64,000 bases of DNA from an uncultured archaeon (GTDB taxonomy: Archaea > Asgardarchaeota > Lokiarchaeia > Sigyniarchaeales > SOKP01), in contig CAZOYD010000015.1 of assembly GCA_964583985.1 (NCBI GenBank), forward strand, positions 1 through 64,000. Reading direction: 5' to 3'. Of the stretch, positions 22,330 through 34,798 are shown in pieces; the stretch's first letter is position 1; the number at the start of each line of letters is the position of its first letter. A model generated the notes under the pieces. That model was given only the letters and a program-made list of their open reading frames with translations, did no database searches and was not told where the DNA came from. A program made the position numbers and the translations under genes.

Positions 22330-23562
22330 TTACAAATCTCTTGGAATTTTCATTTCAATATTCGAAATTGGATACGAAGCACACGGGTGGAAGTAATTAA
22401 ACTTTTTATCTGCAGATCGTCGCCAATCTGAAATTGGATTGATAAACACTTCTCCCGATACAAGAAGCGATCGACAAAATCCACATTCTCCAGAACGGCA
22501 TTTTGATGGTGGGGCTAAATTTGCCCTCTCTAATGCAACCAAAACAGATTCAGTGGCTAAAGCTGGAATTTCTTTAGAAAGACCTCCAATTTGAACTTTA
22601 AGCTTGAAACCTTTATCCGCAAGCTCCTTAGGAAAGCCTGGATATTTTAAAATATCTTTAATTTCTCCAAATGCTTCTCTACGGACACGTTTGACGGGTA
22701 AATTAAACTTATTGAGCTCTTTTTCTATAAAATCATACATAACCTGTGGTCCACATATAAAAAAGGTGGACGCGTGAACGTCGCAATATTTTCCTATGAT
22801 CTCGCCAGTAATGAATCCTTTTTCACATCCTTCCAAAGAGACTTCCTCACAACTCAGCACGTGGATGATTTTAATTTTAGTAGGGTTATTTTTCTCCATC
22901 TCTTTAAATTCATCATAGAAAATTATATCATCCTCTTCAGAACTTCCATATAATAATGTTAAACGAGCATCGATTTTACCTTCAATTATTGCTTTTGCAA
23001 TAGATCTAAAAGGAGTAATTCCAGATCCTCCCGCAATTCCAACAATGTTTTTCAAATCTCTCAATCTCTCAAAAAAGAAGAATCCTTCTGGACCTGAACT
23101 TTCTATCTTTGTACCAATATCCCAATTCTTCCAGAGATAATTGGTTAAGAATCCATTCTCTTCTTTTTTAATCGTGATTTCATAAAATCCATTAGCAACA
23201 TCTGTTGGCGAGGACGCAATTGAATAAGGTCTGGTGATTCGAACACCATTAACGTCAACTTTTAAGCTGAGATATTGACCCGGTCTAAAATACGATAATT
23301 TTTTAGTCTCTGATTCAGGATCGGGAATCAATTTATAGGTTTTAGTAGATCTAGTTTCCTCTTTAATAGCATCAATTATTAAAAATTGTCGCTCGGGATG
23401 TAATTTTCTCGCAAGGTCATTTATTGGATCTTTTGTAATTGGCTCGCTTGATGCACGTTCTATCCGTTTCATTCTATTAGGTACTAACTTAGTGAAAGCA
23501 AATAAGTCCTTTGTATTGCTTTTAACCGTGATGTTTAGTTTTTTCTTATTTCCTTCATTCAT
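22330..23562 (-). CDS. FNR-type FAD/NAD(P)H oxidoreductase with C-terminal [2Fe-2S] domain, copy 1
   Basis: FRPGQY, RPYSIASSP, IAGGSGITPF, FFICGP and CRSGECGFC..C motifs. Confidence 0.9.
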   Translation of the reverse strand: MNEGNKKKLNITVKSNTKDLFAFTKLVPNRMKRIERASSEPITKDPINDLARKLHPERQFLIIDAIKEETRSTKTYKLIPDPESETKKLSYFRPGQYLSLKVDVNGVRITRPYSIASSPTDVANGFYEITIKKEENGFLTNYLWKNWDIGTKIESSGPEGFFFFERLRDLKNIVGIAGGSGITPFRSIAKAIIEGKIDARLTLLYGSSEEDDIIFYDEFKEMEKNNPTKIKIIHVLSCEEVSLEGCEKGFITGEIIGKYCDVHASTFFICGPQVMYDFIEKELNKFNLPVKRVRREAFGEIKDILKYPGFPKELADKGFKLKVQIGGLSKEIPALATESVLVALERANLAPPSKCRSGECGFCRSLLVSGEVFINPISDWRRSADKKFNYFHPCASYPISNIEMKIPRDL

Positions 23563-25127
23563 GCATTATCACGCTCCTTCATTATTTTAGCATAAGTTAA
23601 TTGAGCTGATATCATCCCATCACCGAGAGCGCTACTATATCCATGTAATCGCCTGTTAAATCCACCTGCAAATTCTAATCCTTCGATATATACATCTTTT
23701 CCCATGCTCATTAATCGGGGTACAATAGAATCCCACGACTCTGGTTCATATCCATAAAAAATCCCTTTATAGTGCCTTGTATAACGTGCAAATGTAGCAG
23801 GAGTCGCTATTTCAATTTCTTCAATATGATCTCTTATAGATGTTCCCGTAGCTTTTTCAAAATTAATTAATAATTCTTCCGCAATTTTGGTTTTCGTGTC
23901 ATGGTAATCTTCAGGTTTCACATTTTCCCAAGGTTCAGATTTATAAAGTGTTGTAATATCTAATATGCATGTTCCGGGGGGTGAACAATCAGGAAGTGCA
24001 TTATTAAGAACTACACATGCTAATCCTTTAGGTGGTTTAAGAACTGTCCATGAATCATATAAAGCTTCAGTATTCATGCTATCCATAATAAAATAACCAT
24101 ATTCAGTTAAACCTAACTCCTCTGCAGAAGCATCCAAGCCTGCATAAATGACAAAACCTGTTAATCCATGAATACGAGCATTAACATCCTTATATGCAAT
24201 TTCTGGAACTTCTGATTTTGGGTAGATTAATTTATTGTAGGTTAATGTTGGAGACGCATTACATATTACATAATTTGTTTTAAATTTATCTCCATTCACA
24301 GTTTCCACTCCAGTTATTTTTCCATTCTCAACAAGTATCTTTTCAACTCTTGTATTATATTCTATTCTCCCTCCATACTCCCTGATTTTCTTATCAAATG
24401 CGGTTGTAAAACCATGCGATCTATTTGTTGGAATCCAACCTCCAAGATCAGCATAATTTTGAACCATTGTACAATAAATTGTAAAATTTATTCTACTGAT
24501 GGGTAAACCTAGATATGCCCAATATCCATTTAAAATATCTTGTGCCTTTTTAGGAATCCCCAACGCATCTTCTACCTCTTGAGTTGAATAAGCAGCAGTT
24601 TTAAGAAAATTTGAATATTCCTTCATTAAAACTCCTTGATCCGGTTTTCCTCCTGTTGATCCTATATAATTAAAAGCTTCACCTATTTCCTCTGCTAAAT
24701 CAAAGAATTTTTTAACTGATTCCCTACTGCCTGGAACTTCTTTTTCAATAGCATCGATCATATTTTCAACTCCAAATGGCATGGTAACATCCATTTTTTC
24801 ATTAGGATCAGTCACTATTAGTCGATAAGCTTCAGGAACTTGAACAAATTCAGTATCTAATTTAAATCTGTCTTCAAACATTCTTCTCACGTTACCCTTA
24901 TTAGTTTCAGGTCCATAACTAGCAAGTTCATGTAATGAAGTTTCAAATTCAAATCGCCCTCTGACAAAACTCGTCGCAACTCCACCTGGTAAATTATGTT
25001 GTTCCAGCATTAATACTTTTAAACCTTTTTGAGCAAGAAACGCTGTCGCAGAAAGCCCTCCATTTCCTGCTCCAATAACTACAACATCATAAGAGTCTTC
25101 AAGATTTTGTTCCTTTTTATTACTCAT
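23559..25127 (-). CDS. Phytoene-desaturase/RetSat-like FAD-dependent oxidoreductase, copy 1
   Basis: VVVIGAGNGG, EQHNLPGG..TSFVRGRFEFE, EIEIATPATFARYT; overlaps the reductase gene by 4 nt. Confidence 0.85.
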   Translation of the reverse strand: MSNKKEQNLEDSYDVVVIGAGNGGLSATAFLAQKGLKVLMLEQHNLPGGVATSFVRGRFEFETSLHELASYGPETNKGNVRRMFEDRFKLDTEFVQVPEAYRLIVTDPNEKMDVTMPFGVENMIDAIEKEVPGSRESVKKFFDLAEEIGEAFNYIGSTGGKPDQGVLMKEYSNFLKTAAYSTQEVEDALGIPKKAQDILNGYWAYLGLPISRINFTIYCTMVQNYADLGGWIPTNRSHGFTTAFDKKIREYGGRIEYNTRVEKILVENGKITGVETVNGDKFKTNYVICNASPTLTYNKLIYPKSEVPEIAYKDVNARIHGLTGFVIYAGLDASAEELGLTEYGYFIMDSMNTEALYDSWTVLKPPKGLACVVLNNALPDCSPPGTCILDITTLYKSEPWENVKPEDYHDTKTKIAEELLINFEKATGTSIRDHIEEIEIATPATFARYTRHYKGIFYGYEPESWDSIVPRLMSMGKDVYIEGLEFAGGFNRRLHGYSSALGDGMISAQLTYAKIMKERDNA

Positions 25128-25312
25128 AATCTCATTCTCTTTTTTTTATTATAATTTCATAATTCTTTATTTATTTTGAATTTGATAATTTTATATTAAA
25201 AAATATTCCTTGCTTTTTCATTGGGAATTTAATAAAACACCAAATTTTTTTTAACAAATTTTAATAGTTACAAAATCAATCTTTAACTAAATTAACTTTT
25301 AAGGAATTAACT

Positions 25313-28264
25313 ATGCAAGTATTAGATGTAGAAAAAGAACTTGAGAATTTTAAAGGGCAGCTAAATTTACTCGCCATGATCTTCGATACCCGCAGAAAAA
25401 TGCGTAGAGAAATTTATAATGAAAAAACCGGTTTCATTTTTAATGCAAAATATCAATTCACAACAAAGGATGATGCTTTCAATGTTTATGTAATTTTTAA
25501 AGATGGAAAGATGACTGTCGCTGATGGAAAAATTGAGCATCCTAATATCACAATTTATTATAAAGATAAAGAGACTTTAGCTAATCTTTATAGCAAGAGT
25601 GCCGAAGAATCTCTCGATTATCTTTTAACTAATGAAATGGGATATATAGGAAACATGAGTTATCTTACAAAATTCTCTTATCTTACTTCGCTTGTAATGG
25701 GGGCTAAAATTAAGGATTATAAAGGTCCTGAAAATCGCTTGCTTTATCCAATTAAAGATATTGACAATAGAAAAATCAAAAATGAAACTTTAAATCATAA
25801 AATTGATAAAGTTCAAGTATTAGAAGATCCTTATTTAGCAAAATATTCAATAAACGATTTTCCTCGGCTAAAATATTTGAAAAATCGGAGATTTGCCTTA
25901 AAACCAGCAATTTGCGTGGAAAGGGCGAAATTAGTCACAGAATATCACATGGAAAATGGTTTTGAAGTAGATAAATCCGGAAATCCTTTTGATCCAGAAC
26001 TACGACAAGCTGGAGCGGTGAATTATATAATGGCGAATAAACAGCCTATAATTCACGATGCGCATCTTATTGCTGGCTCCACTACTTCAAAAGAAGTCGG
26101 TATACCAATGTATCCAGAACTAATTGCGACAGCAATATGGCCGGAATTAAAAACAATTGGCGAACGAGAACTTAATCCGAACGATATTTCGGATAAAGAT
26201 GCTGATATTTTGAGCCTTGAAGTTTTTCCTTATTGGATGGAACGAAATGTGAGGGAATTTTGCAGAACAAAAAATAATAATCCAAAATCCCAAGCACTTG
26301 AGGAAGGGTGGGTTTTCTATTTTATGATGAAGACTAATGCTATCAGCCATACCGTCCCTGGATTTCCAATGGTGATCAATGAGGGCTTAGAAAGCATAAA
26401 AAGTAAAGCGGAGAAATTAGAACAAGAAACTAAGGATACAGAGAAAAAGAATTTTTATAAAGCGGTTCAAATCGCAATCGACGGAGTATTGATCTATTCA
26501 AAACACTTGAGTGAGGAAGCACTTAGAATTGCTTCCAATTTGGATCCTAATAACCCAGATCAAGCAAAAAGAATTATAGAATTGAAGGAGATCTCAAGAA
26601 TATGCGCTAAAGTTCCCGCAAAGCCAGCAGAAACACTTCAAGAGGCAATTCAATCAATCTGGACCAGCTTTGTATGCCTACATTGTGAGAATGCCAATTC
26701 TGCATTGTCTATTGGTCGACTTGATCAGATGTTACAACCCTTCTTCTTAAGTGATATTGAAAAAGCTGGTAATGAAGAAGAGAAACAAAATGTTATAAAA
26801 CGTGCTATTGAATTAGTAGGGTCCTTATTTCTAAGAATAAACGATCACGATCCATTAATGCCGAACGTGGGATGGAAGTTATTTGGGGGTAGCTCTTCAG
26901 ATGACACTGTAACTGTTGGAGGTGTGGATAAAGAAGGCAATAATGCAGTTAACGACATGTCATTTATCATCTTAAAAGCAAATGAAATGCTAGGTTTTCA
27001 AGATCCCAACATGAATGCCAGATATTATTCTGGGATTAATTCGAAGGAGTATTTACGAAGACTTACCGAAGTAAACATTAATATGGGGGCATCTCCAAGC
27101 ATTCACAATGATAAAACAATGATTGAAGCATTGGTCCATGAAGGTTTTTCATTGGAAGATGCAAGAGACTGGGCTGTTACCGGTTGTGTGGAACCTACTA
27201 TTGTAGGGAAACATTATGGTCATACAAATTGCATGCTTTTGAACTTAGTAGCTCCCTTAGAAATGGCATTAAATAACGGAGTTATTCCATTAACAGGAGA
27301 TAAAATGGGTATTGAAACTGGGGACGTTCGATTAGCGTTTCCCACTTTCAATGATTTTCTTGATGCTTACAAGGCACAACTGAAATATTTGGCTGAACAA
27401 TCAATTGAGATAAATAATTTTCTTGGAGAAGCGCATGAAATCATTCATCCAACACCTCTCTTATCTGGATTCTATAAAGGTCCTTTAGAAAAGGGTAAAG
27501 ATCTCATAAAAGGGGGAGCAATTTATAACACATCGGGCGTTGCACTTGTAGCGCTCACTGATGTTATTGACAGTTTATTAGTTATTAGAGATTTAGTCTA
27601 TAATAAAAAAGAAATTGATTTTGGTACCTTAATGGATGCATTACAAAACGATTTTGAAGGTTATGAGTCCATTTTAAATAAAATAGATCAAGTTCCTAAA
27701 TTTGGATCCGGTGAAGATTCTACAATCAAATTAGCCCAAGATATTATTGATTTTTGTTATGGGATATACAATTCTGCTGATAATTATAGGGGTGGTAAAT
27801 ATTTAGTCGGTTACTGGTCAATAAGCTACCATACCGGATTTGGAATGCTCACGGGCGCGTTACCATCGGGACGTAAAAAAGGAAAGGCTTTAACACCTGG
27901 ATTGACTCCTGCTCCAGGAACTACTGATATATTACTCCCTAGCATTCAGAGTGTTGCAGCTTTGGATTATTTAAAAATGGCTAACAATGCCTCATATAAT
28001 GTAAAGTTGGTTCCTCACGCTGGAGATAGTCATGAAAAAACATTAGATTTATTTACTAGTTATGTTCAGAGCTTTTTTGATTTGAATGGAATGCAGTGGC
28101 AATTTAATGTTGTATCAACAAATACTTTGAAAGATGCAATGGTCAATCCAGTAGATTATAGATGGTTATTAGTCAGAGTTTCAGGCTATAATGCATATTT
28201 TACGAAATTAAATAAAAATATGCAATTAGAAATAATTGAACGACATGAATATCAACCCAAATAA
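25313..28264 (+). CDS. Glycyl radical enzyme (PFL2/eliminase type) with N-terminal SCP2-like domain
   Basis: SIGRLDQ, TVGG, single-Cys GCVEP active-site loop and C-terminal LLVRVSGY glycyl motif. An extra ~130 aa N-terminal domain (YQFTTKD..YVIFKDGKMTVADG..PNITI..IGNMSYLTKF) resembles SCP2. Confidence 0.88.
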   Translation: MQVLDVEKELENFKGQLNLLAMIFDTRRKMRREIYNEKTGFIFNAKYQFTTKDDAFNVYVIFKDGKMTVADGKIEHPNITIYYKDKETLANLYSKSAEESLDYLLTNEMGYIGNMSYLTKFSYLTSLVMGAKIKDYKGPENRLLYPIKDIDNRKIKNETLNHKIDKVQVLEDPYLAKYSINDFPRLKYLKNRRFALKPAICVERAKLVTEYHMENGFEVDKSGNPFDPELRQAGAVNYIMANKQPIIHDAHLIAGSTTSKEVGIPMYPELIATAIWPELKTIGERELNPNDISDKDADILSLEVFPYWMERNVREFCRTKNNNPKSQALEEGWVFYFMMKTNAISHTVPGFPMVINEGLESIKSKAEKLEQETKDTEKKNFYKAVQIAIDGVLIYSKHLSEEALRIASNLDPNNPDQAKRIIELKEISRICAKVPAKPAETLQEAIQSIWTSFVCLHCENANSALSIGRLDQMLQPFFLSDIEKAGNEEEKQNVIKRAIELVGSLFLRINDHDPLMPNVGWKLFGGSSSDDTVTVGGVDKEGNNAVNDMSFIILKANEMLGFQDPNMNARYYSGINSKEYLRRLTEVNINMGASPSIHNDKTMIEALVHEGFSLEDARDWAVTGCVEPTIVGKHYGHTNCMLLNLVAPLEMALNNGVIPLTGDKMGIETGDVRLAFPTFNDFLDAYKAQLKYLAEQSIEINNFLGEAHEIIHPTPLLSGFYKGPLEKGKDLIKGGAIYNTSGVALVALTDVIDSLLVIRDLVYNKKEIDFGTLMDALQNDFEGYESILNKIDQVPKFGSGEDSTIKLAQDIIDFCYGIYNSADNYRGGKYLVGYWSISYHTGFGMLTGALPSGRKKGKALTPGLTPAPGTTDILLPSIQSVAALDYLKMANNASYNVKLVPHAGDSHEKTLDLFTSYVQSFFDLNGMQWQFNVVSTNTLKDAMVNPVDYRWLLVRVSGYNAYFTKLNKNMQLEIIERHEYQPK

Positions 28265-28298
28265 ATTAATTCCTTTTCTATTTTTATATCTTTAAGTA

Positions 28299-29198
28299 AT
28301 GATAGACAAAACATTAATAGTCGATATTAAAAGAAACGCATTAGATGATGGTCCAGGTATAAGAACCTTAATATTTTTTAAAGGATGCCCTCTTTCTTGT
28401 GTTTGGTGCCAAAATCCGGAGACAAAATCTCCTTCTTTGGAATTATCGTTTGATAAACAGATGTGTTCTGAATGTGGGAGTTGTATAGCTTCCTGTACCC
28501 AAGACGCTATTGATTTTGAGTATAAATTTCGCATTGATCGAAGTAAGTGTAATTTATGCGGTAGTTGCGTTGATAATTGCCCAAATTCCGCTTTAGAATT
28601 AGTAGGTAAATCATATTCAATTGAAGAATTAATGGAAATTATTTTGAAAGATAAAGTGTTTTATGATAACTCTAAAGGAGGGGTAACTCTCTCAGGTGGT
28701 GAACCTTTATATCATATATATTATGTTTATAATTTATTAAAGGAATTAAGGAAAGCTAATATTCATAGTTGCATTGAAACAGCAGGGCTCTATAATCGGG
28801 AAAAATTTGAGGAATATATTAAACCCCATGTTGATCTCATATATTTTGATTTGAAAATATTTAATCCCAAACTTCATTCCTATTATTGCAATGTTACAAA
28901 TGAACGAATTTTAGAAAATTTTGAAAATCTTATAAAGCAAGATGTGATAGAAATCTTGCCAAGAATACCATTAATTCCATCTATAACAGATAGAAAAGAG
29001 AACTTGCGTGCATTAGCAGATTATCTAAGCTCATTAAACGTCAAAGAAATAGGATTATTACCTTACAATCCCCTTTGGCTTTCTAAATCTGAAAAAATCG
29101 GGATTGAACAAAGTTATAATCATTCTGAATGGTTAAGTAAAGAAAAAAAAGAAGAAATTAAAGAGATATTTTCAGACTTTAAGTTTAAAGATTTTTAA
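28299..29198 (+). CDS. Glycyl-radical activating enzyme with ferredoxin insert
   Basis: DDGPGIRT.IFFKGCPLSCVWCQNPE, two CxxCxxCxxxC motifs and GGVTLSGGEP. Confidence 0.95.
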   Translation: MIDKTLIVDIKRNALDDGPGIRTLIFFKGCPLSCVWCQNPETKSPSLELSFDKQMCSECGSCIASCTQDAIDFEYKFRIDRSKCNLCGSCVDNCPNSALELVGKSYSIEELMEIILKDKVFYDNSKGGVTLSGGEPLYHIYYVYNLLKELRKANIHSCIETAGLYNREKFEEYIKPHVDLIYFDLKIFNPKLHSYYCNVTNERILENFENLIKQDVIEILPRIPLIPSITDRKENLRALADYLSSLNVKEIGLLPYNPLWLSKSEKIGIEQSYNHSEWLSKEKKEEIKEIFSDFKFKDF

Positions 29199-30988
29199 AC
29201 TGGTTTACCTTGTGCATCCCATCCTCTAATTTGATAGTATTTTTCTAGTAATCCTTCTAATGGAGGAATATTACCTTTAGATCCACCCTTTTCAAGCGGA
29301 GTATAAAATCTCTTCCCAAAATTATCATCTGCTTTGGTTATTCCACACTTAACATTAAAAATTCTTTTCATTTTAACGATTTCTCGACCTGCTTTCATAA
29401 AATCATCAACTGTATAAGACCTACCAGTGATTCCATTGAGACCGTTGATCCAAGGTGTGAGTTTGTGAATGAACCAAAATCCAAATATACAACCTCCAGC
29501 TGCGGAATACGCTTCGCTACCATCTTGAATTTTTACTACGGCTTCAGCAACATCATCCCCTGTGCCAAACTTATCTACTCTTTCAGTTAAACCAATTTCT
29601 TCTTTTTGATTCATGTAGGAGGATAAATGCATCGGTTCATAACAATGATATCCGCCTCGAGGGGTTGTAGCATAATCTAATGCCGTGAGATTATTAGCTC
29701 GTGGTTCATGAGCTGGAATCTCAAGCCCTTTTCCATGCATTGAAAGTTCATCTGGTAATCCCTTTAACTCACAAAAAGATCTTACTCCTTCAGCTAAATC
29801 GTTACCAATTCCTTCTCTATAAGCAATTTTGGTGAAAAGCTTTTCAATTGATTCAATATTGCCCCAAACATTTTCTTCAGTAAAATTAAAACCATCTAAG
29901 TTATCACTAATTAATTTTCTTTCAATTGATTCAAGAAAACATCCTACAGCAGCCCCAAGGCTAATTGAATCTAGTCCAAGATCATTAACAATTAAATTCC
30001 ATTTGATAATTGTTTCTAAATCATCAACCATTAAATTAGATCCTAGCATTCCAAGAGTTTCATATTCTGGACGAGTTACCCATTTTCCTTGATACTCTAA
30101 GAAACCCCGGCAAGCTGTTGGGCAATTAAAACAACCATGCATTTTTACTACTCCTCTAGCCTGCATTGCTTTTGCTCCAAGTTTTTTAATCCCTATCCAC
30201 CGTCCTTCTGTATAATTCTTGATAATTACATCTCCTACACTATACATAGAATCAATATGAACAGGTGTCCCCGAATCAGCCATAACCATTCCTAATGCTG
30301 ATTTTTTTAATAATTCTCTAAGTTCTTTAGCAGCATCATTTACTTTATCTTTATCTTGAATAGGAACTTTGTTAGTACCAAGAACCGCAATAGCTTTTAA
30401 GTTCTTACTACCCATTACAGCACCCATTCCACATCTTCCAGCAGCATGGTGCTTATCATTGATTATACATGCGTATTTTACTAAGTTTTCTCCCGCAGGA
30501 CCAATCGTGGCCACTTTAATTTTATCATTTCCAAGCAGCTCTTTTAATTTTTCATCAGTTTCTTGCGTTCCTTTACCCCATAATTCGGATGCATCCTTTA
30601 ATTCTGCAATTCCATCATTTATCCATAGATAAACTGGAGTCTTGCTTTTACCCTTAATGATGACTAGATCATAACCTGCAGTTTTTAACTCCTTACCAAA
30701 AAAACCTCCTGAAGATGCTTCCCCAAGAATTCTAGTTAGCGGCGATTTTGCTGTAATGAAGTATCTACCACAAAAAGGAATAGCCGTGCCGCAAAATGGT
30801 CCAACTGAGAAAATTAAATGATTCTTTCCATCTAATGGATCAACCTCTGGAGAAACTTCTTTTGTGAAAATTGCAGTTGCTAAGCCCATTCCTCCAATTA
30901 GCTCAACTTCCTCTTTACTTTTATAATCTTCATATTCTATCTTATTTGAATCTAAATCTACTCTAAGTATTTTAGCGATCTCAATCAC
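29195..30988 (-). CDS. aor: Aldehyde:ferredoxin oxidoreductase (W-pterin family)
   Basis: AKSPLT, IGPAGENLV, AAGRCGMGAVMGSKNLKA, CFNCPTAC, EYET, DLGLDSIS and YYQIRGWD motifs. Confidence 0.93.
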   Translation of the reverse strand: MIEIAKILRVDLDSNKIEYEDYKSKEEVELIGGMGLATAIFTKEVSPEVDPLDGKNHLIFSVGPFCGTAIPFCGRYFITAKSPLTRILGEASSGGFFGKELKTAGYDLVIIKGKSKTPVYLWINDGIAELKDASELWGKGTQETDEKLKELLGNDKIKVATIGPAGENLVKYACIINDKHHAAGRCGMGAVMGSKNLKAIAVLGTNKVPIQDKDKVNDAAKELRELLKKSALGMVMADSGTPVHIDSMYSVGDVIIKNYTEGRWIGIKKLGAKAMQARGVVKMHGCFNCPTACRGFLEYQGKWVTRPEYETLGMLGSNLMVDDLETIIKWNLIVNDLGLDSISLGAAVGCFLESIERKLISDNLDGFNFTEENVWGNIESIEKLFTKIAYREGIGNDLAEGVRSFCELKGLPDELSMHGKGLEIPAHEPRANNLTALDYATTPRGGYHCYEPMHLSSYMNQKEEIGLTERVDKFGTGDDVAEAVVKIQDGSEAYSAAGGCIFGFWFIHKLTPWINGLNGITGRSYTVDDFMKAGREIVKMKRIFNVKCGITKADDNFGKRFYTPLEKGGSKGNIPPLEGLLEKYYQIRGWDAQGKPV

Positions 30989-31127
30989 CTTTATTTATTC
31001 TATTATGTAATATTCCCTCATTGTATTATTTATAATTTGTCAATTTGCTAGAAAAATCAAATCTTGACAATGATTAAATTTACACTTCTCCTTTGAAATT
31101 ACTCGCATTTTAGATAAAATAAAAAAA

Positions 31128-32348
31128 TTATCGATTTCTTGGGACAATAATTTCAAGATTAGACATGGGATATGATGAACAAGGATGAAAGTAATTACGT
31201 AATTTATCCGCAATTCTTCTTTTATCATCAAAAGGATTCACGAATATTTCACCAGATATTAATGCAGAACGACAGAATCCACAGGAACCTGATCTACACC
31301 TGGAGGGTGGTGCTAATTTTGCTCTCTCTAATGCTGTTAAAACCGATTCAGTTGCTAATGCAGGAATTTCAGTTAATAAAGATCCCATCTCTACTTTTAT
31401 TGAAAAGGTTTTTCCAATGCATTCTTTAGGATAATTTGGAATAGATAATGGGTTTCTTATTTCTCCAAAAACTTCCTTACGTATTCTTTTATATGGCAGA
31501 TTAAATTTTGCTAATTCATTCTCAACGAATTCATACATGATTTGAGGACCGCAAATAAAAAATGAACATTTATTTATATCCACGTGTTTCTGTATTATTT
31601 CAGCATTAATGAATCCTTCTTCACACCCTTCTAAGTGAACTTCCTCACAGCTTAGTACATGAATGATTTTTATTTGATTGGGGAAATTCTTTTCAAACTT
31701 TCTGAATTCATCATAAAAGATGATGTCATCCTCTTCACTACTTCCATAAAATACTGTTAGTTTAGCATTAATTGTTCCATTTATTATGGATTTTGCGATT
31801 GATCTGAATGGGGTAATGCCTGAACCCCCTGCTATTCCTACTATGTGATTTAAATCCCTTAGTGGTTCAAAATAAAAATTACCTTCGGGACCAGAACTTT
31901 CTATTTTAGAACCAATTTTCCAATTATCCCATATATATTGAGTTAAAAATCCATCCTCTGCTTTCTTAATTGTAATTTCATAAAAACCATAAAGACTATC
32001 TAATGGAGATGAGGAAATTGAATAGGGACGTGTTATTACTGTTCCATTTATTTGTACTTTTAGACTCAGGTATTGTCCTGCTCTAAAATAAGCTGTTTTC
32101 TTTTCATCAGATTCTGAAATAAGACGGATTGTTTTTGTTGACTTCGTTTCTTCTCTTATCTCACTTATGACTAATGTTTGCTTTTCAGGATGTAATTTTC
32201 TGGACAGATTCTTGATTGGATCATTCTTTGGGAGGTTCGAAGCTTTTTGTATCAATTTGCTCCTTTTAGAGATCAGATTTTTAAATGCAAGCAAATCTCT
32301 AATATTACCTTTTACGCTGAGATCAAACTTTTTATTATGGTTCTTCAT
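31128..32348 (-). CDS. FNR-type oxidoreductase with [2Fe-2S] domain, copy 2
   Basis: FRAGQY, RPYSISSSP, IAGGSGITPF and CRSGSCGFC motifs; paralog of 22330-23562. Confidence 0.9.
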   Translation of the reverse strand: MKNHNKKFDLSVKGNIRDLLAFKNLISKRSKLIQKASNLPKNDPIKNLSRKLHPEKQTLVISEIREETKSTKTIRLISESDEKKTAYFRAGQYLSLKVQINGTVITRPYSISSSPLDSLYGFYEITIKKAEDGFLTQYIWDNWKIGSKIESSGPEGNFYFEPLRDLNHIVGIAGGSGITPFRSIAKSIINGTINAKLTVFYGSSEEDDIIFYDEFRKFEKNFPNQIKIIHVLSCEEVHLEGCEEGFINAEIIQKHVDINKCSFFICGPQIMYEFVENELAKFNLPYKRIRKEVFGEIRNPLSIPNYPKECIGKTFSIKVEMGSLLTEIPALATESVLTALERAKLAPPSRCRSGSCGFCRSALISGEIFVNPFDDKRRIADKLRNYFHPCSSYPMSNLEIIVPRNR

Positions 32349-33898
32349 TATTCTCCCTCCCTAATTTTTTGTAAAGTTAAAAATGCTGATATCTGTCCAG
32401 AAATTAAAGAATTAGTATAACTTACTCCTTGTGAAGAATATCCTCCACATATCTCTAAACCCTCAATATATTTCTCATCATTCATTGCCATTAATCGTGG
32501 AATAAACGAATCCCAAGGATCACTTTCATATCCATACGCAGAACCTTGAAATGCACTTGTATATCGTGAAAGGGTTTGGGGAGTAGCAATCTCAATTTCT
32601 TCAATGTGATCTTTAATTGATATATTAAGTGCTTTCTCAAATGATATAATTAAATCATTCGCAATTTTAGATTTTATATTGAAATAATCCTCTGATTTCA
32701 CGTTATCCCATACACCTGGTAAGAAAAAGGTTGTTATCATCAACATTGAAGTATTTGGAGGACTACAATCATTTATAATGTTATTTAAACAAGTTGTTGC
32801 TTGTACCATGGGTGAATTTAATGTTTTAAATGATTCATATATTTTTTCTGTATTCATTGAATTAAAAATGTGATAACTGTAATTTTTTATTCCTAATTGT
32901 TCAGCAGAAGCATTTAAACCTAAATAGACCGAAAAACAACTAATTGCGTGTTTTCGGGCATTAACAAATTTATAAGCGATCTCTGGAACCTCTTCCTTTG
33001 GAAAAATTAAATTGTTATATAATATAGTGGGAGAGGCGTTTGAAATAACATTATCCGTTTGGATTTTATCTCCTTTAGAGGTTTGAACTCCAATAATCTT
33101 ACCATCTTTGACTAAAATCTTTTCCACCCTCGTATTATATTCAACTTTTCCCCCGTTTTCTCGAATTTTAGATTCTAAAGCCGTTGAAAAATCGTGTGTT
33201 CTGTATTTCGGGAAATATGCTTTCCGAGTGAGGAAGTAGTAATGCATAGCTGAATAAAAGGTGAAATTAACCCTATTCGTCGGGATTCCAATATAGATCC
33301 AATATGCATCTAAAATTTCTTGTGCTTGTTGAGGGATTTTTAAAGCATTATTAACTTCATCTAAACTATATGGAACTGATTTTAAAAAACTCTTATACTT
33401 TTTTAAAAGCACGTCCTTCTCTGGATTACCTTTTGATTCTGTAAGATAGGTAATGGCTTCATTGATTTCCTCTGATAAAGTTAGATAATTCAAGAGGGAG
33501 TCTTTACTACCAGGAACGGCATTATCTATTGCTGCTACAAAATCCTCAAGACCAAAAGGGACTACAATATTAATCGGATCGTTTATATCAGTACATATTA
33601 ATCTAAACGCCTCAGGTATTTCTACAAATTCGACTTGCAAACCTAAATCATCCTCGAATAATCTTCTAATCGACCCTTTATTATCGTGAGGACCATAGTC
33701 ACATAATTCATGAAGAGTACCTTCAAATTCGAATCTGCCCCTTACGAAACTAGTGGCAAACCCCCCTGGTAAATTATGTTGTTCGAAAAGAATTACCTTT
33801 ACTCCTTCTAAAGCAAGTTGAGCCGCAGCTGTCAAACCACCATTTCCGGCTCCGATTATAACTACTTCATAAAATTCATTAAATTTCTGATCACTCAT
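32348..33898 (-). CDS. Phytoene-desaturase/RetSat-like FAD-dependent oxidoreductase, copy 2
   Basis: VVIIGAGNGG, EQHNLPGGFATSFVRGRFEFE, EIEIATP; paralog of 23559-25127; 1-nt stop/start overlap with the reductase gene. Confidence 0.85.
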   Translation of the reverse strand: MSDQKFNEFYEVVIIGAGNGGLTAAAQLALEGVKVILFEQHNLPGGFATSFVRGRFEFEGTLHELCDYGPHDNKGSIRRLFEDDLGLQVEFVEIPEAFRLICTDINDPINIVVPFGLEDFVAAIDNAVPGSKDSLLNYLTLSEEINEAITYLTESKGNPEKDVLLKKYKSFLKSVPYSLDEVNNALKIPQQAQEILDAYWIYIGIPTNRVNFTFYSAMHYYFLTRKAYFPKYRTHDFSTALESKIRENGGKVEYNTRVEKILVKDGKIIGVQTSKGDKIQTDNVISNASPTILYNNLIFPKEEVPEIAYKFVNARKHAISCFSVYLGLNASAEQLGIKNYSYHIFNSMNTEKIYESFKTLNSPMVQATTCLNNIINDCSPPNTSMLMITTFFLPGVWDNVKSEDYFNIKSKIANDLIISFEKALNISIKDHIEEIEIATPQTLSRYTSAFQGSAYGYESDPWDSFIPRLMAMNDEKYIEGLEICGGYSSQGVSYTNSLISGQISAFLTLQKIREGE

Positions 33899-34081: not shown

Positions 34082-34798
34082 TTAAGGATTTTTTACAAAT
34101 AGTTTTTCAATAAATTTCGGTAACATCAATCCAATGTAGAACTCCAGAGTACTTGTAAATAAAATAATTCGAGCAATAACGTAGACTAAAGTCATTGGAA
34201 TAGCGAAGTCCAATACCGTGCCAATTGTGAATGATAAAAACGCAATAAGAAGGAATTTTCCTTTTAAACTTATCACTCGGTCTTGCTCTTTTATAGAGCT
34301 TATTGAAAATGAGATTCCCACATATAAAAAGAATACAAGACTCACTATAAAATAAATCTGACTTGGTACCGACCAATTTATCATGAATGGTGATGTTCCA
34401 GTTTCCGCGATCATTGAAATATCAGTAAATACGAAAACCAAGAAAAATATCTCATAAAATATGTTGATTGAGAGGTTCAAGATAAGGATTATATTTTTTG
34501 TTCTTTTTTTCTTAGGTAAGACTTTTAAAAATGCAATAAGACCTAATACGATTGTTATAGGTAAAAAGGCTATGCCAAATACTATAAACGCTTCAATACT
34601 CACAGGTGCCGATGTGACTAAAGTTATTATAAAAATTATTATAGTTGGCCACCAAGGAGTCGTGAGACCAATCCAGAATAATCCAAAGAGAAGGAACTGG
34701 CTTTTTCTAAGTTTAAAGTATTTTGAAATAATAATCAGTCCTGTTATAATTGAGATTATTACAAATATCAAGGTAAAAACACCATGAATCATATCCAA
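34082..34798 (-). CDS. Multi-pass (about 7 TM) membrane protein of unknown function
   Basis: 238 aa with about seven hydrophobic segments. Confidence 0.7.
   Translation of the reverse strand: MDMIHGVFTLIFVIISIITGLIIISKYFKLRKSQFLLFGLFWIGLTTPWWPTIIIFIITLVTSAPVSIEAFIVFGIAFLPITIVLGLIAFLKVLPKKKRTKNIILILNLSINIFYEIFFLVFVFTDISMIAETGTSPFMINWSVPSQIYFIVSLVFFLYVGISFSISSIKEQDRVISLKGKFLLIAFLSFTIGTVLDFAIPMTLVYVIARIILFTSTLEFYIGLMLPKFIEKLFVKNP

Follow-up and report, generated by a model that had tools for sequence, protein, structure and literature searches.

We analysed a stretch of 64,000 nucleotides (the window) from an uncultured archaeon of the lineage Asgardarchaeota, Lokiarchaeia, Sigyniarchaeales, SOKP01 (assembly GCA_964583985.1, contig CAZOYD010000015.1, positions 1-64,000 of the forward strand), which carries a seven-gene locus containing a glycyl radical enzyme (GRE) fused to an SCP2 domain. 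The locus comprises two separable modules. Module A, consisting of the SCP2-fused GRE (SCP2-GRE), an activase and an aldehyde:ferredoxin oxidoreductase (AOR), travels across domains, and module B is a CrtI-like flavoprotein with an FNR-[2Fe-2S] reductase. Judged from alignment, the SCP2-GRE is an eliminase-type enzyme that fits none of the characterised classes compared. Our favoured reading, held somewhat above even confidence, is that module A would act by radical elimination on the head group of a lipid, yielding an aldehyde that is then oxidised and broken down in CoA-linked form.

The assembly is 3.8 Mb in size with a GC content of 32%, and close relatives carry the names Promethearchaeota or Lokiarchaeota. 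All seven open reading frames (ORFs) are intact and at the expected places, and the ORF calls together with family assignments by Pfam and NCBIfam agree with the genes, order and orientation given in a preliminary description of this DNA. The core of module A is the SCP2-GRE (25313-28264, + strand, 983 aa), identified by Pfam/NCBIfam, structure matches, alignment and tree. It is followed after 34 bp by a radical-SAM GRE activase with a ferredoxin insert (28299-29198, +), which scores above the cut-off of TIGR02494 and retains its CxxxCxxC and two ferredoxin motifs. On a strand unlike that of most relatives lies the AOR (29195-30988, -), assigned by Pfam and tree to a Loki GRE-linked clade; its AFOR_N and AFOR_C domains and 4Fe-4S cysteines place it in the AOR (tungsten) family. 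Activase and AOR overlap at their stop ends, as described earlier, by 4 bp. The cofactor motifs of the locus are likewise intact, including Cys625/Glu627 and Gly958, the plant-type 2Fe-2S cysteines and the FAD glycine motif.

The SCP2 domain occupies residues ~3-132 of the GRE (25319-25708, +). The Pfam SCP2 score of residues 1-140 fell under the cut-off (E 0.006), a profile of the domain found no match among PDB sequences, and its comparison with the free SCP2 of this genome was not significant; the fold is therefore visible by structure alone. An AF2 model built from 51 sequences reached a pLDDT of 86, its top matches in both Foldseek (probability 1.0) and VIA were all SCP2 proteins, and alignment with human SCP using VIA gave a Z of 11.8 over 112 aligned residues (root-mean-square deviation 2.7). 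As modelled, the N-terminal domain is a genuine SCP2 fold, and the fusion proposed in the preliminary description is thus borne out by structure. The domain is well conserved (mean column identity 57%) and fixed to the GRE clade, and a search with the N-terminal region gave 157 matches plus a more distant clade, so that the fused protein forms a family. In an Atlas cluster of 198 relatives, PF02036 was detected in 15% of members. A literature search for GREs combined with SCP2 found nothing linking them. The domain also resembles a large family of ~150-aa proteins that stand alone (P0257, P0258 and many more), and neither P0257 nor P0258 has a Pfam match.

A PFL-like barrel, a Cys loop, a C-terminal Gly loop and the adjoining radical-SAM activase place the protein in the GRE superfamily. 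Its thiyl loop, Cys625-Val-Glu627 (27185-27193, +), contains a single Cys and is invariant in 66/66 wider relatives, and the glycyl radical site was located by alignment and motif at Gly958 (28184-28186, +). This loop has the CxE motif of GRE 1,2-eliminases and isomerases, which is necessary for membership and not sufficient (PMC13450708). Across twelve positions in glycerol dehydratase numbering, His164, Cys433, Glu435 and Gly763 are kept, and the replacements His281 to Ser, Tyr336 to Ser, Tyr339 to Asp530, Asp447 to Asn and Tyr640 to Trp835 are near-invariant in the close family. All 66 wider relatives have the His, Cys, Glu, Trp and Gly, and 57 of them have Asp530. By alignment, this class-specific residue (26900-26902, +) stands where diol dehydratases and CutC have an aromatic Tyr339 or Phe. 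In the eliminase mechanism, Glu takes the proton of the C1 hydroxyl and His donates one to the leaving group (PMC13450708). Since Glu and His are kept while other fingerprint residues are replaced, the catalytic core of an eliminase is present and the contacts to small diols are gone. A distant relative of the SCP2-GRE, P0279, lacks the catalytic Cys and Glu and is a possible pseudo-enzyme.

The closest solved structures are eliminases (E ~1e-111 to 1e-102), with MASS at 2e-57 and BSS at 2e-47. In trees made with FastTree or a quick IQ-TREE run without bootstrap, the SCP2-GREs form their own branch (100% support, length 0.74), outside which fall glycerol and propanediol dehydratases, CutC, HypD, PflD, YbiW and the other GREs of this genome. 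Asgard copies nest among bacterial ones. The residue set of glycerol and propanediol dehydratases (His164, His281, Ser282, Tyr/Phe339, Asp447, Tyr640) is reduced to His164. CutC is excluded by His in place of Asp at the 164 equivalent, by Asp530 in place of the aromatic cage and by a TIGR04394 score of 421 against a cut-off of 1050 bits, and HypD by Ser463 and Asp530 at the equivalents of Asp278 and Phe340 and by an NF043068 score of 431 of 1100 bits. With a single Cys, no Cys-Cys pair and 125 of 994 bits to TIGR01255, the protein is not a pyruvate formate-lyase. Nor does it belong with the X-succinate synthases BSS and MASS, there being no ORF between GRE and activase. Sulfonate C-S lyases (IslA, IseG, HpsG) anchor the sulfonate via two Arg and a Gln; they gave weak matches, and the SCP2-GRE has no Arg at the fingerprint positions, IslA, HpsG, HplG, BSS and HPAD having been compared without residue-by-residue alignment. 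The fully supported clade and the altered fingerprint together keep this GRE apart from the small-substrate classes compared; membership of a characterised class with every specificity residue conserved, which would have counted against the preliminary description, is not what the alignment shows.

Chance adjacency needed testing, because the genome encodes six GREs, 14 AORs and three CrtI/FNR cassettes. We therefore compared 143 loci from genomes and metagenomes, dereplicated to 98 groups, counting genes within 5 kb of the GRE as near; given short contigs and related genomes that are not independent samples, the counts are descriptive. An AOR is near the GRE in 17/27 groups at 80-100% GRE identity, 5/10 at 75-80% and 16/51 at 55-75%, or 38/88 above 55%, against a background of 5% in this genome. 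These AORs come from three clades (Loki; Desulfobacterales; Syntrophomonas/Spirochaetales/Bacteriovoracaceae), and such recurrence in unrelated lineages upholds the proposed tie between AOR and GRE. In 26 loci the AOR closely follows the GRE on the same strand, and in 11 it is on the opposite strand. The opposite-strand AORs, including the present one, fall mostly in one AOR subclade, which ties the AOR to the GRE and not to the second CrtI/FNR cassette. The earlier observation that this cassette runs co-directionally into the AOR is accurate here, yet it is a feature of a sublineage and not a general trait.

Other enzymes recur beside the GRE. Among the 51 groups at 55-75% identity, 15 have a crotonase, eight a TetR, five an acyl-CoA ligase and three an acyl-CoA dehydrogenase. 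Most GRE-adjacent crotonases form one clade (100%, 23 rows), found beside the GRE in archaea and Desulfobacterota, which has the single Asp of PaaG without either hydratase Glu. An operon-like Desulfobacterales locus (L112:1225-13668) combines a GRE, a long-chain acyl-CoA ligase, a crotonase, an AOR, an acyl-CoA dehydrogenase, the SCP2-GRE and an AF1327-like membrane protein. In the neighbourhoods of five distant family members we found TetR and the activase and no common catabolic partner. Hosts of the family include Desulfatibacillum alkenivorans, Desulfosudaceae and Syntrophomonas, which are degraders of fatty acids, alkenes or alkanols. In the present genome, two single-Asp crotonases are encoded on contig C31 (L244:1430-8367), adjoining a different GRE of 799 aa without SCP2. 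This second GRE occupies the slot held by the SCP2-GRE in other Loki genomes, and the GREs closest to it (35-39%) are found near an SCP2-GRE at four loci from bacteria or metagenomes; it may supply this pathway with a second radical reaction.

We propose the following route for module A. The activase would place a radical on Gly958, from where it would pass to Cys625, as in established GRE chemistry for which the motifs are present. The SCP2 domain may hold or deliver the greasy tail of the substrate. By homology with glycerol and propanediol dehydratases, the thiyl radical would abstract hydrogen from the carbinol carbon of the lipid head group, Glu627 would deprotonate the hydroxyl of that carbon, and His346, probably with Asp530, would protonate the leaving group on the next carbon to give an aldehyde. 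Gene context suggests that the AOR oxidises the aldehyde to an acid, reducing ferredoxin, and that an acyl-CoA ligase, the single-Asp crotonase and an acyl-CoA dehydrogenase lead on to beta-oxidation; genes for all three adjoin the GRE in other lineages, and this genome encodes them at other sites. Glycerol ether lipids are our tentative lead as substrate. Dehydration or alkoxy loss would give 3-alkoxypropanal and then 3-alkoxypropionyl-CoA, whose ether the single-Asp crotonase could break by beta-elimination. We favour these lipids because hosts of the GRE family degrade lipids and because a leaving alcohol or 3-alkoxy acid would explain the pairing of AOR with a single-Asp crotonase. Moreover, YbiW and PflD, themselves CxE GREs, cleave a cyclic ether C-O bond, which shows that expulsion of an alkoxy group is within the reach of GREs (PMC13450708). 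The same chemistry would suit vicinal diols of long-chain or terpenoid type, a somewhat fainter candidate.

Several points weigh against this interpretation. The CxE motif is also present in HPAD, IAD and isomerases (PMC13450708), SCP2 folds occurred on acetyltransferases too in our structure search, and residue-by-residue alignment covered seven reference GREs only. The full-length AF2 model is of low confidence at the active site. The most distant GRE clade (<55% identity) had an AOR nearby in 0/10 groups, many bacterial GRE copies stand alone, that of D. alkenivorans included, Loki genomes have as many as 14 AORs each, and related genomes do not count as independent.

Three other readings of the GRE were weighed. 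The substrate might be small and polar and the SCP2 domain structural or regulatory, as would suit the sub-threshold Pfam score and the small polar substrates of every characterised eliminase listed in a 2026 review (PMC13450708). However, the domain is strongly conserved and fixed to the clade, the bacterial neighbours are long-chain acyl-CoA enzymes and the bulky polar residues that make contacts in small-diol enzymes are missing, all of which make this improbable. Alternatively, the same chemistry could act on sphingoid amino alcohols, the GRE being a C-N lyase that releases ammonia and a 3-hydroxy aldehyde from long-chain sphingoid bases, with Asp530 pairing with the ammonium. CutC is a precedent for C-N elimination (PMC13450708), Asp530 is conserved where diol dehydratases have aromatics, and the logic of aldehyde, AOR and crotonase would still hold. 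Nevertheless, the position equivalent to Asp216 of CutC is a His, as in C-O eliminases, and no ceramidase or sphingolipid gene recurs near the GRE in the neighbourhoods examined; we regard this as unlikely, whether put as substrate or as reaction.

Poorest of all in our estimate is a fumarate-adding hydrocarbon activator or fatty-acid decarboxylase, as proposed for archaeal PFL2-like enzymes. The Archaeoglobus fulgidus PFL2, proposed as an alkylsuccinate synthase, is the second-best structure match, hydrocarbon degraders are among the hosts and Asgard homologues have been annotated in this way (PMC8163825). Against this, matches to MASS, BSS and HPAD are much weaker than those to eliminases, CxE is kept, no small-subunit genes are present, the activase following so closely, and the partners are aldehyde enzymes rather than succinate-rearranging ones. 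A hydrophobic substrate yielding an aldehyde, as first suggested, is the best reading, and we lean modestly towards it.

The preliminary description had further placed the CrtI/FNR cassettes in one system with the GRE, and this is not supported. A cassette is near the GRE in 20/27 groups at >=80% identity and in 0/71 below. Cation-efflux (17/27) and Ldh2 (15/27) genes follow the same pattern in the former groups, which indicates plain synteny. Flanking of the GRE by cassettes is confined to a single subclade within a Loki genus; of the 35 genomes of that genus, 29 have a close CrtI and 21 the close GRE. Four genomes of 95-100% completeness have the cassette without any SCP2-GRE, one of 93% has the GRE without a close CrtI, and GRE and activase are cleanly absent from one locus (L249) whose cassette is 98% identical to a GRE-linked one. 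At 1e-50, no CrtI match was obtained in several bacteria that carry the GRE, such as D. alkenivorans. The resident Loki gene order (Ldh2, cation efflux, FNR, CrtI, DUF1848) is found in many genomes with no GRE there. Module B therefore looks like the older resident of the site, not required by module A, with adjacency arising from lineage history. We also considered that module A had inserted into a recent tandem cassette duplication; this was ruled out, as tandem copies elsewhere are other paralogues.

A unified pathway, in which the CrtI/FNR pairs prepare or finish the lipid of the GRE, for example by saturating or hydrating an isoprenoid chain, and the cluster is co-regulated, would be consistent with several observations. 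At three further loci (L073, L149, L162) the GRE is likewise bracketed by two cassettes. Most Loki genomes with the GRE have a close CrtI orthologue (47-68%) at another site, as do GRE-bearing genomes of two Bacteriovoracaceae and one Spirochaetales, and in L300 a cassette immediately precedes a crotonase of the GRE-adjacent clade, taking the position that the GRE has in other genomes. In addition, a CrtI homologue of Methanosarcina makes hydroxyarchaeol, according to the part of PMC10821996 that cites Mori 2015. Given the distribution and the separation of the modules set out above, we consider a unified pathway doubtful; a looser link, within the same broad lipid catabolism, is possible.

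Module B can be considered in its own right. Cassette 1 consists of an FNR-[2Fe-2S] reductase (22330-23562, -; Pfam) and a CrtI/CRTISO/RetSat-fold flavoprotein of 522 aa (23559-25127, -), which scores far under the cut-off of every named CrtI-family NCBIfam model; cassette 2 consists of a second reductase (31128-32348, -; Pfam) and a second flavoprotein (32348-33898, -), placed in a separate clade by paralogue comparison. The cassettes are old paralogues (CrtI 54%, FNR 66% identical), and both clades are also found without a GRE. In nearly every locus the CrtI and FNR genes abut or overlap; here the overlap is 4 bp in cassette 1 and 1 bp in cassette 2. A score under the cut-off (92 of 238 for the crtI family) and the lack of carotenoid gene context make the flavoprotein a fold relative only of phytoene desaturase CrtI, CRTISO and CrtD, and the reductase likewise scores under the cut-off for PaaE (142 of 421). 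The predicted CrtI-FNR complex has an ipSAE of 0.93 against 0.40 for the best control, with a partner pLDDT of 88 and at least 94% contact agreement between model runs; contacts are made mainly via FNR residues 9-55, within an N-terminal arm of ~55 residues that is predicted to clamp the flavoprotein. The ipSAE mark was reached by 58/80 solved and 2/110 mismatched pairs, counts that are approximate because the alignments were our own. The model supports, and does not show, a heterodimeric two-component flavoenzyme, which might move electrons between NAD(P)H and lipid C=C bonds.

A third cassette lies on contig C2 of this genome (L060:879-16035) amongst thiolases, ChsH2-type proteins, a class III aminotransferase, an old-yellow-enzyme reductase, two crotonases, an acyl-CoA ligase and a free SCP2. 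This looks like a cluster for steroid or branched-lipid side-chain catabolism; it is in keeping with a unified pathway and suggests, independently of the GRE, that module B acts on a lipid. Around the present cassettes, a cation-efflux gene adjoins the first reductase, 58 bp further on, and the second reductase is 139 bp from the AOR. Cassette 1 and the GRE are separated by a divergent, AT-rich gap of 185 bp (25128-25312; 114-334 bp in relatives), from whose geometry alone a common promoter may be inferred. A promoter and terminator scan of the locus, using a bacterial model not suited to archaea, gave nothing above chance. A 238-aa membrane protein without Pfam match (34082-34798) precedes cassette 2, as it precedes this paralogue in other genomes without a GRE there. 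In L091 the cassette 1 FNR is split into two ORFs, by frameshift or assembly error, and the GRE is intact. Jordarchaeia-like genomes (L265, L266) have four to six CrtI-like paralogues each, often in tandem and some with a shorter FNR.

PFL-like GREs of known function are all bacterial, and archaeal ones are a clear gap (PMC13450708); our literature searches on GREs in Lokiarchaeota or on ether cleavage gave nothing relevant. If a lipid-acting class is true, it would extend GRE chemistry, offer a testable candidate for how recalcitrant membrane lipids are turned over anaerobically, and sharpen the view of what Asgard archaea eat. A test is practical, since the cultured D. alkenivorans DSM 16219 has a 61% identical copy. 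The CrtI/FNR predicted heterodimer would be a second, independent uncharacterised enzyme. We hold it rather unlikely that SCP2-GRE, AOR, acyl-CoA ligase and single-Asp crotonase are the first oxygen-independent means by which glycerol ether lipids, such as alkylglycerols and archaeol-type lipids, are broken in anoxic sediments and, at once, that CrtI/FNR is a new two-component isoprenoid-chain reductase or hydratase in the same network.

Lastly, we compared both modules with the closest known systems. Module B shares fold and cofactor motifs with CrtI/CRTISO/RetSat, the hydroxyarchaeol synthase of M. acetivorans and PaaE-type FNR-[2Fe-2S] reductases; it differs in being a translationally coupled pair with predicted N-terminal-arm binding, and its locus has neither oxygenase nor carotenoid genes. 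To our knowledge, no complex of the CrtI/FNR-[2Fe-2S] kind has been solved. The SCP2-GRE would share CxE-assisted beta-scission with the isomerases YbiW and PflD, with HypD/HpyG/HpzG and with CutC, but these have other fingerprints and small polar substrates, and it scores far under their NCBIfam equivalog cut-offs. The A. fulgidus PFL2/PflD (2F3O), whose function is debated, is likewise archaeal, with CxE, a non-aromatic 339 position and an E of 2.5e-111, but it has no SCP2 domain and keeps the Asp447 and Tyr640 equivalents that the SCP2-GRE family lacks. Glycerol dehydratase of C. butyricum (1R8W/1R9D) and propanediol dehydratase of R. inulinivorans (5I2A/5I2G) share with the SCP2-GRE the PFL fold, the single-Cys CxE, the His164 equivalent, a ferredoxin-type activase and aldehyde-handling neighbours. 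They are only ~30% identical to it, five of their fingerprint residues are replaced, the SCP2 domain is extra, and their neighbours are alcohol dehydrogenase or microcompartment genes rather than AOR and acyl-CoA enzymes. On these comparisons, the SCP2-GRE would work most like a glycerol or propanediol dehydratase, yet it falls outside every named class aligned with it residue by residue.

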